Positions 4,036-4,863 of a DNA stretch of 64,000 nucleotides are shown here, piece after piece; positions within the stretch are counted from its first letter, which is position 1; every line of letters begins with the position of its first letter. The translations under genes and the position numbers were made by a program. Below the pieces are notes generated by a model. The model saw only the letters and a program-made list of their open reading frames with translations. It ran no database searches and was not told where the DNA came from. The stretch lies in sequence record MZ436830.1; one strand, written 5' to 3'. The DNA is from Escherichia phage JK1.

Positions 4036-4111
4036 TGGTCGAGGCAGTAGGGATCGAACCTACGACCCAGGACTTAGAAGGTCCTTGCTCTTCCTTCTGA
4101 GCTATGCCTCG
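4036..4111 (-). tRNA. tRNA-Arg (anticodon UCU)
   Basis: Cloverleaf folded by hand: acceptor CGAGGCA/TGCCTCG, T-arm GTAGG-GATCGAA-CCTAC, anticodon loop CTTCTAA, CCA encoded. Confidence 0.85.
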
Positions 4112-4115
4112 TATT

Positions 4116-4190
4116 TGGCGGACGTGATAGGATTCGAACCTATAACCAATCGCTTAACAGGCGATCGCTCTGCCATTGAGCTACACATCC
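4116..4190 (-). tRNA. tRNA-Asn (anticodon GUU)
   Basis: 5' GGATGTG-TA-GCTCAATGGCAGAGC D-arm, anticodon loop CTGTTAA, T-arm with TTCGAAT loop, CCA encoded. Confidence 0.8.
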
Positions 4191-4194
4191 AAAT

Positions 4195-4281
4195 TGGTGG
4201 GGAGTGGTGGAGTCGAACCACCCGAGTCGCAATGACAATGGATTTACAGTCCACACCGCTACCTCTACGGGATAACTCCCC
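4195..4281 (-). tRNA. tRNA-Tyr (anticodon GUA), type II with long variable arm
   Basis: 87 nt; acceptor GGGGAGT/ACTCCCC, anticodon loop CTGTAAA, variable-arm hairpin, T-arm GGTGG-TTCGACT-CCACC, CCA encoded. Confidence 0.7.
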
Positions 4282-4290
4282 AAATTAATT

Positions 4291-4365
4291 TGGTGGCCCT
4301 GGGTGGAATTGAACCACCATCTGGCGATTATGAGTCGCTTGCTTGAACCTTCCAGCTACAGGGCC
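4291..4365 (-). tRNA. tRNA-Ile (gene anticodon CAU; AUA-decoding type as in T4) or tRNA-Met
   Basis: Acceptor CAGGGCC/GGCCCTG, anticodon loop CTCATAA, T-arm GGTGG-TTCAATT-CCACC, CCA encoded; Ile assignment by analogy with T4. Confidence 0.7.
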
Positions 4366-4366
4366 T

Positions 4367-4442
4367 TGGTGCTGATTGACGGAATCGAACCGCCGACCTT
4401 CTCATTACAAGTGAGTTGCTCTACCTACTGAGCTAAATCAGC
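4367..4442 (-). tRNA. tRNA-Thr (anticodon UGU)
   Basis: Acceptor GCTGATT/AATCAGC, anticodon loop CTTGTAA, CCA encoded. Confidence 0.85.
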
Positions 4443-4447
4443 AAAAC

Positions 4448-4537
4448 TGGCGGAGGCGATAGGATTTGAACCTATGAGTCGCCGGAGCGACTGCCGGTTT
4501 TCAAGACCGGTGCATTAAACCACTCTGCCACGCCTCC
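4448..4537 (-). tRNA. tRNA-Ser (anticodon UGA), type II
   Basis: 90 nt; GGAGGCG-TG-GCAGAGTGGTTTAATGC D-arm, anticodon loop CTTGAAA, long variable arm, T-arm ATAGG-TTCAAAT-CCTAT, CCA encoded. Confidence 0.85.
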
Positions 4538-4539
4538 AG

Positions 4540-4613
4540 TCTCCATACAAGGATTTGAACCTTGGACCTCCTGATCCCAAATCAGGCGCTCTACCAAACT
4601 GAGCTACACGGAG
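4540..4613 (-). tRNA. tRNA-Pro (anticodon UGG)
   Basis: 5' CTCCGTG-TA-GCTCAGTTTGGTAGAGC, anticodon loop TTTGGGA, T-arm CAAGG-TTCAAAT-CCTTG; no encoded CCA. Confidence 0.85.
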
Positions 4614-4623
4614 TAAATTAAAT

Positions 4624-4697
4624 TGGAGCGGATAATGAGAATCGAACTCACATCATCAGATTGGAAGTCTGAGGTAATACCATTATACGATATCCGC
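4624..4697 (-). tRNA. tRNA-Gly (anticodon UCC)
   Basis: Acceptor GCGGATA/TATCCGC, anticodon stem TCAGA/TCTGA with loop CTTCCAA, CCA encoded. Confidence 0.85.
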
Positions 4698-4702
4698 AAA
4701 TT

Positions 4703-4789
4703 TGGTGCGAGAAGTGGGACTCGAACCCACAAGGAAATCATTCCGCAGCATTTTAAGTGCTGTGCCTTTACCAATTTGACCATTCTCGC
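4703..4789 (-). tRNA. tRNA-Leu (anticodon UAA), type II
   Basis: 87 nt; acceptor GCGAGAA/TTCTCGC, anticodon loop CTTAAAA, T-arm GTGGG-TTCGAGT-CCCAC, CCA encoded; 1 nt from tRNA-Gln. Confidence 0.85.
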
Positions 4790-4790
4790 G

Positions 4791-4863
4791 CTGGGAATAA
4801 AGGACTCGAACCTTTGCATCCTGGAATCAAAATCCAGTGCCTTACCAACTTGGCTAATTCCCA
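4791..4863 (-). tRNA. tRNA-Gln (anticodon UUG)
   Basis: 5' TGGGAAT-TA-GCCAAGTTGGTAAGGC, anticodon loop TTTTGAT, T-arm AAAGG-TTCGAGT-CCTTT; no encoded CCA. Confidence 0.85.

Follow-up and report, generated by a model that had tools for sequence, protein, structure and literature searches.

The transfer RNA (tRNA) locus of the T-even phages has been under study since the 1970s. In phage T4 (NC_000866) it comprises eight tRNA genes, none of them for Tyr or Asn, with segB, a GIY-YIG homing endonuclease gene, lying between the Ile and Arg tRNA genes. For T2L, RB1 and RB3 the region has been sequenced as well; it is free of segB there and carries genes for Met(CAU), Tyr, Asn and an Arg isoacceptor that T4 is without (Brok-Volchanskaya et al. 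2008, PMC2330249). Reported tRNA counts are 8 for T4, 9 for T2, 7 for T6, 8 for RB32, 9 for RB51 and 7 for RB15, and ten, the most common count, for RB3, RB14, RB18, RB26 and LZ2 (Petrov et al. 2010, PMC2993671). The preferred target of SegB is a 27-bp site within tRNA-Asn, and in crosses of T4 with T2L, 99.6% of the progeny inherit segB and the T2L CAU-Tyr-Asn-Arg block is lost (PMC2330249). Here, we analyse the tRNA array at positions 4036-4863, minus strand, of a 64,000-nucleotide (nt) stretch of Escherichia phage JK1 (MZ436830.1), referred to below as the window. Based on directly observed gene content, homology, CCA pattern, SegB site, segB absence and codon statistics, we read this locus with high confidence as the common segB-free (T2L/RB-type) form of the T-even Tequatrovirus tRNA operon and as a recipient allele for segB.

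ARAGORN called exactly ten tRNA genes in the window, all on the minus strand and all within the array (Table 1). All ten reach at least the gathering score of Rfam RF00005 (29 bits), nine of them at 59-74 bits (E values 1e-12 to 1e-16), and the weakest score, 30.3 bits, belongs to tRNA-Tyr, which is of class II and has a long variable arm. An initial annotation of the window, made from the sequence alone, had listed ten tRNAs with order, coordinates and anticodons, Tyr and Asn being placed after the CAU tRNA and before Arg, and both programs agree with it. Its range of 1-10 nt for the spacers is correct at the upper end and wrong at the lower: from Gln to Arg the spacers are 0, 5, 10, 1, 5, 1, 9, 4 and 4 nt, with no gap at all between Gln and Leu. 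Reading of the 3' ends likewise returned the pattern it had described, with CCA encoded in eight genes and not in Gln and Pro. The Gln gene ends in ...CAG-C, followed directly by G1 of Leu, and the Pro gene in ...GA-C-U (T in the DNA), followed by G1 of Ser; C74 alone is thus encoded in these two genes. Rfam hits to Plastid-ycf2, sX4, YrlA, tRNA-Sec and ST7-OT3 overlap the tRNA genes at scores far below their gathering scores and were dismissed as tRNA cross-matches. By analogy with T4 and T6, the ten tRNAs would be expressed, processed and aminoacylated in infected cells.

The second element of our reading is the absence of segB together with the presence of its target. No SegB homologue was found in the whole 64-kb window by tblastn with T4 SegB (best E = 0.3), and the list of open reading frames (ORFs), Pfam, PHROG and tblastn gave no GIY-YIG endonuclease ORF in or beside the array. 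No ORF of real size fits inside the array, where the listed ORFs fall within tRNA genes, and a nuclease hidden in the two flanking ORFs (171 and 153 amino acids, aa) was considered and rejected, as these have no Pfam match and their PHROGs are families of unknown function only; the absence of a seg-like ORF, as originally noted, is thereby confirmed. The T-arm and 3' end of tRNA-Asn contain the 27-mer GGTTCGAATCCTATCACGTCCGCCAAA, which is identical in T2L (AJ880101, position 1220). It differs from the corresponding site in the window's own tRNA-Ser at exactly G6, A16, G18, A26 and A27, the positions at which the mapped SegB site of T2L differs from the weaker Ser site (PMC2330249). With segB absent and the exact 27-bp site intact in tRNA-Asn, the JK1 locus is a recipient (empty) allele for segB homing. 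Cleavage and conversion in mixed infection have been shown for T2L only (PMC2330249), and from the identical site we would expect JK1 to be susceptible to SegB cleavage and homing as well. The segB form of T4 was probably itself derived by homing (PMC2330249). Relics of Tyr or Asn genes were sought at the segB junctions of T4 and T6, and none were found beyond the Tyr gene that T6 shares.

For the comparison with T4 we used a three-way alignment and per-gene identities. The T4 tRNA region (X03016, Broida & Abelson) occupies the same genomic position and has the same PM2 promoter, rnaD, rnaC and terminator as the window, but T4 lacks both flanking ORFs. The six genes from Gln to Thr are common to the two phages and 89-100% identical, with Gln at 66/74 and the other five as listed in Table 1. 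In contrast, the CAU gene and tRNA-Arg are only 65% and 74% identical to their T4 counterparts and both are 100% identical to those of T2L; homology with T4 is lost within the CAU tRNA and regained at the start of rnaD. Since CAU and Arg are T2L alleles rather than those of T4, the whole CAU-Tyr-Asn-Arg block reads as an alternative cassette, and from the alignment JK1 differs from T4 by the exchange of one block for another (CAU-Tyr-Asn-Arg versus Ile-segB-Arg) rather than by two insertions. The initial annotation had spoken of Tyr and Asn being added to the T4 set, which holds as a description of content but not as history; its statement on T4 itself (eight tRNAs, no Tyr or Asn, segB inside) agrees with NC_000866, and the comparison with T4, T2L and T6 yielded the T2L-type block and a tRNA-Tyr in common with T6. 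The two phages differ as well in the 3' end of tRNA-Ser, where the window has CCA and T4 has UAA at the same position. As the Ile gene of T4 is also without CCA, four genes lack an encoded CCA in T4, Ile and Ser among them, against two in JK1.

Among the shared genes, tRNA-Gln differs from that of T4 in its anticodon arm (4820-4840), which reads CUGGA-UUUUGAU-UCCAG, with a loop identical to that of E. coli glnU. This arm occurs at 99% identity or more in 290 of 440 phage records, including RB3 and RB18, and the T4-type arm, UAGCA-CUUUGAC-UGCUA, in 127 of the 440; the two are related by compensatory changes and the rest of the gene is identical. We had considered the JK1 arm as a rare escape allele, as it differs from T4, T2L, T6 and RB27, but it is in fact the majority allele of an ordinary dimorphism.

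Among individual relatives, the record closest to the window is vB-Eco-KMB42, with a colinear array and the same gene order; an apparent insertion there (best match of 1971 bp for a 1417-nt query) was discarded, being due to the terminator repeat, which recurs downstream of the 153-aa ORF. RB27 (KM607000, RB27_t001-t010) carries all ten tRNAs with order and anticodons unchanged; rnaD, rnaC and the terminator come next, and the flanking 171-aa and 153-aa ORFs are shared as well; nine of its ten tRNAs are 98.6-100% identical to those of the window, its Gln arm is of T4 type, and rnaD differs by a few substitutions. T2L (AJ880101) is likewise without segB, and its CAU, Asn and Arg genes are identical to those of the window, its Tyr gene 98% identical and its Ser gene equipped with CCA. 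It differs in having nine tRNAs, with ORF trna.1 in place of Thr, ORF trna.2 between Arg and rnaD, and a T4-type Gln arm. Neither of these T2L ORFs gave a significant tblastn match in the window and Thr is present, so that the window has the configuration of RB27 and not that of T2L. T6 (NC_054907) has seven tRNAs, with segB in the Asn slot, no Pro or Ser gene, CAU and Arg of T4 type, and a tRNA-Tyr that matches that of the window at 86 of 87 positions. Sf21 and Aplg8 have eleven, with His(GUG) between Asn and Arg. In both of them (1290-1479 and 1288-1477 of the retrieved stretches, respectively) some 110 nt of spacer come before this gene, and Sf21 also has a T2L-type trna.2 ORF after Arg. 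The variable members Tyr, Asn and His all have GUN anticodons. Array content among close relatives thus spans 7 to 11 tRNAs, with ORFs replacing tRNAs in some.

Prevalence was taken from how many records have the Tyr-Asn block and how many have segB, as counted with a similarity tool that joins split matches. Megablast of the region matched 992 phage records at 90-99% identity, nearly all of them Tequatrovirus and hundreds of these at 95-99%, and in 407 of the records a single place takes in 80% or more of the query. The Tyr-Asn block is present in 395 phage records (at least 80% coverage) versus 126 for full-length segB. It is also highly conserved, with 204 records at 99% identity or more and 268 further ones at 95-99%; the tRNA-Asn gene recurs at 99% identity or more in 316 phage records. 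The Tyr-Asn form is therefore the common one and the segB form of T4 the minority. The initial reading was sound as a description, but the arrangement is not new: it was known from T2L, RB1 and RB3 in 2008 and from the counts in RB phages in 2010, and it is annotated in RB27.

Outside this genus, phage naam (MN850630), an unrelated rV5-like Vequintavirus, has a tRNA-Tyr (1507-1592 of the retrieved stretch) and a CAU tRNA (2079-2152) that match window positions 4195-4281 and 4291-4365 at 84/86 and 73/74 bases (98-99%), while its Arg, Ser, Thr and Pro genes are merely 70-86% identical. This suggests selective horizontal exchange of the Tyr and CAU tRNA genes between coliphage families. In Campylobacter, Mycobacterium and Gordonia phages there are tRNA genes that match tRNA-Asn at 80-83%, and these matches probably represent general tRNA conservation rather than exchange.

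The identity of the CAU tRNA bears on what the array can decode. Met is the default reading of a CAU anticodon, and ARAGORN in its default setting as well as the GenBank records of RB27, T2L and T6 label the gene as such; it is, moreover, no more than 65% identical to the experimentally characterised tRNA-Ile of T4. Were it an elongator tRNA-Met, the array would be without a decoder of AUA. We consider this very improbable. Among the matches listed from 5,426 complete E. coli genomes, every one is annotated as tRNA-Ile, the median number of matching places in a genome being two, and the gene is identical to ileX at 58 of 75 positions and to metT at 51 of 71. The TilS identity elements of E. 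coli lie at 4:69 and 5:68 (PMC11947777), where the phage gene pairs C4:G69 and C5:G68, as do ileX and the Ile gene of T4, whereas metT has U4:A69 and A5:U68. The phage gene shares its anticodon arm, AGCGA-CUCAUAA-UCGCC, with a prophage tRNA-Ile(CAU); the arm of ileX is nearly the same, whereas metT has another stem. The codons point in the same direction, with AUA strongly enriched in the phage and AUG not (values below). The gene is thus best read as tRNA-Ile2, predicted to carry lysidine and to read AUA, and the Ile assignment of the initial annotation is better supported than the Met label of ARAGORN and GenBank. One of the better E. coli matches, a tRNA-Ile(CAU) on the chromosome of strain EC1 (101-260 of the retrieved stretch), adjoins two tRNA-Arg genes and a DNA methyltransferase; this cluster looks prophage-borne, and its anticodon arm is identical to that of the phage gene.

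Codon usage was compared under the same ORF calling between the window (58 ORFs, 18,537 codons) and a 50-kb sample of E. coli K-12 (52 ORFs, 14,291 codons). The eight codons most enriched relative to this sample are GGA, AUA, AGA, UCA, AAU, ACA, UAU and UUA, and each of them is read by one of the ten tRNAs. AUA, the second-highest, is enriched 4.3x, AAU 2.9x and UAU 2.8x, with AUG at 0.95x, and the most over-represented amino acids are Tyr (1.69x) and Asn (1.52x). The enrichment fits the classical explanation of phage tRNAs as codon supply, which here extends to the Tyr and Asn tRNAs.

A different account of the variable tRNAs (Tyr, Asn and, in some relatives, His) is that they serve mainly in counter-defence, as replacements or decoys for host tRNAs cleaved by Septu and retron-Eco7 (Tyr) or by the AriB nuclease of PARIS (Asn, Thr), with codon supply being secondary. 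As to Tyr, the variable arm of tRNA-Tyr is where Septu (PtuAB) cuts it (Chihara et al. 2026, PMC13096335). The tRNA-Tyr of T6, whose expression was seen in northern blots and tRF-seq, restores infection under Septu when overexpressed or amplified through SegB; T6 with the tRNA-rich region deleted is sensitised, T4, which has no Tyr gene, cannot escape, and T2 is resistant (PMC13096335). The window's tRNA-Tyr is identical to that of T6 in the variable arm, the sole difference being a U to C change in the anticodon stem that turns a G-U pair into G-C. By analogy, the JK1 tRNA-Tyr probably also replaces host tRNA-Tyr destroyed by tRNA-cutting defences such as Septu and the PtuAB of retron-Eco7. 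Regarding PARIS, AriB cuts E. coli tRNA-Lys, tRNA-Thr(UGU) and, secondarily, tRNA-Asn(GUU) at U36AAUC|N41 (U36AAUC|C41 in tRNA-Asn); the nuclease needs the UAAU motif, and tRNA-Lys is no longer cut once U39 is substituted (PMC12409363). In the window, tRNA-Asn has U36-A-A-G39-C40-G41 (stem at 4150-4160) in place of the UAAUCC of E. coli asnT, and the phage tRNA-Thr(UGU) has G40 at the cleavage site (4400-4410), so both phage tRNAs may be poor AriB substrates. The near-identity of Tyr and CAU with an unrelated Vequintavirus, in which the other genes are far less similar, would also fit selected horizontal spread. Against this stands that the phage over-uses precisely Tyr and Asn and their codons UAU and AAU, so that supply alone explains these two tRNAs. 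The T6 tRNA-Tyr is not Septu-resistant; T-even phages lack tRNA-Lys, the main target of AriB, so that a resistant Asn alone could not defeat PARIS, and rescue of T4 from PARIS requires the tRNA-Lys of T5 (PMC12409363); the AriB resistance of the phage Asn is a supposition drawn from sequence. On balance, a mainly counter-defensive role is possible but doubtful. A further proposal, that the variable end (Thr, Tyr, Asn and, in some relatives, His) is a set of counter-defence genes, each adapted to evade particular tRNA nucleases, appears unlikely to us. If it were true, the phage Asn (G39) and Thr (G40) could be AriB-resistant replacements beside the published anti-Septu tRNA-Tyr, and the 98-99% identity of Tyr and CAU with Vequintavirus would represent selected horizontal spread of anti-defence tRNAs.

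Alternatively, the difference from T4 could have little adaptive meaning, the block reflecting only whether segB has overwritten it and Tyr and Asn being dispensable passengers. The crosses cited above, in which T4 SegB homing removes the T2L block from nearly all progeny, and the variable array content of close relatives, with ORFs in place of some tRNAs, speak for this view. It is nonetheless quite unlikely given the high conservation of the Tyr-Asn block, the tight match of the tRNA set to the most enriched codons and the defence phenotype of the tRNA-region deletion in T6 (PMC13096335).

Some points also weigh against our own reading of the locus as a segB-free operon that supplies tRNAs and probably counters Septu. 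For the codon comparison, E. coli was represented by a single 50-kb region, in which ribosomal-protein genes abound, rather than by its whole genome, and AT-richness alone partly yields enrichment of codons ending in A or U. Septu cuts the T6 tRNA-Tyr too, and wild-type T6, with its single Tyr copy, shows intermediate sensitivity, escape having required amplification (PMC13096335); as JK1 is without segB, the SegB route by which T6 amplifies tRNA-Tyr is closed to it. A generic sigma-70 promoter scan was uninformative, giving 5 sites against 5.1 expected by chance, and the promoter assignment therefore rests on homology to the annotated PM2 of T4. Finally, for JK1 we infer that the unit is transcribed and processed, that the CAU tRNA is modified with lysidine, that defences are evaded and that the locus is susceptible to homing.

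The features of the unit and its neighbourhood are collected in Table 1. Window positions 4961-4925 align at 36 of 37 bases with the PM2 middle promoter annotated in X03016 (MotA box TATGCTT, -10 TATTAT), and the element is conserved in T4 and RB27; from this homology, the JK1 promoter would be active. The terminator is homologous to those annotated in X03016 and in Aplg8. Synteny with the e.8 ... trna.2-4, ipI region of T4 is kept, trna.2-4 homologues being recognised through PHROG matches, and the order of ORFs agrees with the T4 and RB27 annotation.

Table 1. Features of the tRNA operon of Escherichia phage JK1 and its surroundings, with positions in the window
Feature	Position	Strand	Evidence and remarks
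tRNA-Gln(UUG)	4790-4863	-	ARAGORN, Rfam 67.4 bits; C74 alone of CCA encoded; abuts tRNA-Leu
tRNA-Leu(UAA)	4703-4789	-	ARAGORN, Rfam; CCA encoded; 87/87 identical to T4
tRNA-Gly(UCC)	4624-4697	-	ARAGORN, Rfam; CCA encoded; 74/74 identical to T4
tRNA-Pro(UGG)	4539-4613	-	ARAGORN, Rfam; C74 alone of CCA encoded; 1 nt from tRNA-Ser; 75/75 identical to T4
tRNA-Ser(UGA), class II	4448-4537	-	ARAGORN, Rfam; CCA encoded; 90/90 identical to T2L, 88/90 to T4
tRNA-Thr(UGU)	4367-4442	-	ARAGORN, Rfam; CCA encoded; 73/76 identical to T4, 76/76 to RB27
CAU tRNA, T2L-type allele	4291-4365	-	ARAGORN, Rfam; CCA encoded; 75/75 identical to T2L, 48/74 to T4 Ile
tRNA-Tyr(GUA), class II, A73	4195-4281	-	ARAGORN, Rfam 30.3 bits; CCA encoded; 86/87 identical to T6, 85/87 to T2L
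tRNA-Asn(GUU), G73	4116-4190	-	ARAGORN, Rfam 74.1 bits; CCA encoded; 75/75 identical to T2L
tRNA-Arg(UCU), T2L-type isoacceptor allele	4036-4111	-	ARAGORN, Rfam; CCA encoded; 76/76 identical to T2L, 51/69 to T4 and T6
Preferred SegB recognition/cleavage site (27 bp), GGTTCGAATCCTATCACGTCCGCCAAA	4114-4140	-	T-arm and 3' end of tRNA-Asn
rnaD (species 2 small stable RNA)	3916-4034	-	112/116 aligned bases match T4 rnaD; RB27 rnaD in the same place
rnaC (species 1 small stable RNA, tRNA-like T-arm)	3772-3910	-	137/139 identical to T4 and RB27 rnaC
Intrinsic terminator of the tRNA/rnaD/rnaC unit	3698-3721	-	10-bp stem with 7 GC pairs, then T run
PM2 homologue (putative middle promoter)	4925-4961	-	Pattern match; MotA box TGCTTTA 4957-4951, -10 TATTAT 4938-4933; about 70 nt upstream of tRNA-Gln
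Late-promoter motif TATAAATA	5709-5716	-	Upstream of the array as in T4; motif of T4 conserved
Early-promoter-plus-stem-loop element GTTGTTTACAT ... GATACTAT	6672-6717	-	43/46 identical to T4 PE1; upstream of the array as in T4
171-aa ORF	4950-5465	-	PHROG 2290 (family of unknown function); between trna.2 homologue and tRNA-Gln
153-aa ORF	3194-3655	-	PHROG 2280 (family of unknown function); between rnaC and e.8

Of the two flanking ORFs, the 171-aa one, which RB27, KMB42 and Sf21 carry but T4 and T6 do not, ends in a stop codon that shares bases with the MotA box of the PM2-like promoter. The 153-aa ORF is found in RB27, KMB42 and Sf21 and not in T4, T6 or T2L. It is bracketed by a 36-bp direct repeat (3154-3189 and 3689-3724) whose copies are 92% identical, each with an intrinsic terminator inside, and it looks like a gene cassette inserted via recombination at the repeated terminator.

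Taken as a unit, the ten tRNAs, rnaD and rnaC lie head to tail between the PM2-type middle promoter and the intrinsic terminator, with early and late promoters further upstream of the PM2 homologue. By analogy with T4, polycistronic precursors would be made and then processed by host enzymes, RNase P making each 5' end, exonucleases trimming the 3' ends and the host CCA-adding enzyme completing Gln and Pro. The mature tRNAs would raise the decoding capacity for codons ending in A or U, which are used 2-4x more than in E. coli and include UAU and AAU, and tRNA-Tyr would probably double as a substitute for host tRNA-Tyr lost to the two PtuAB systems. A co-infecting phage with segB would be expected to cut the site in tRNA-Asn and convert the allele.

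The JK1 locus thus represents the commonest allele of the T-even tRNA operon; its segB-free form, the SegB target within tRNA-Asn and the action of tRNA-Tyr against Septu have all been published already. For practical use, the locus can be annotated as a tRNA operon of Tequatrovirus that comprises ten tRNA genes plus rnaD and rnaC, and the label tRNA-Met should be corrected to tRNA-Ile2. For the biology of the phage, our reading predicts that JK1 would lose the CAU-Tyr-Asn-Arg block to a co-infecting segB-positive phage, and that it would be less sensitive to Septu than T4, yet unable to amplify its tRNA-Tyr as T6 does.

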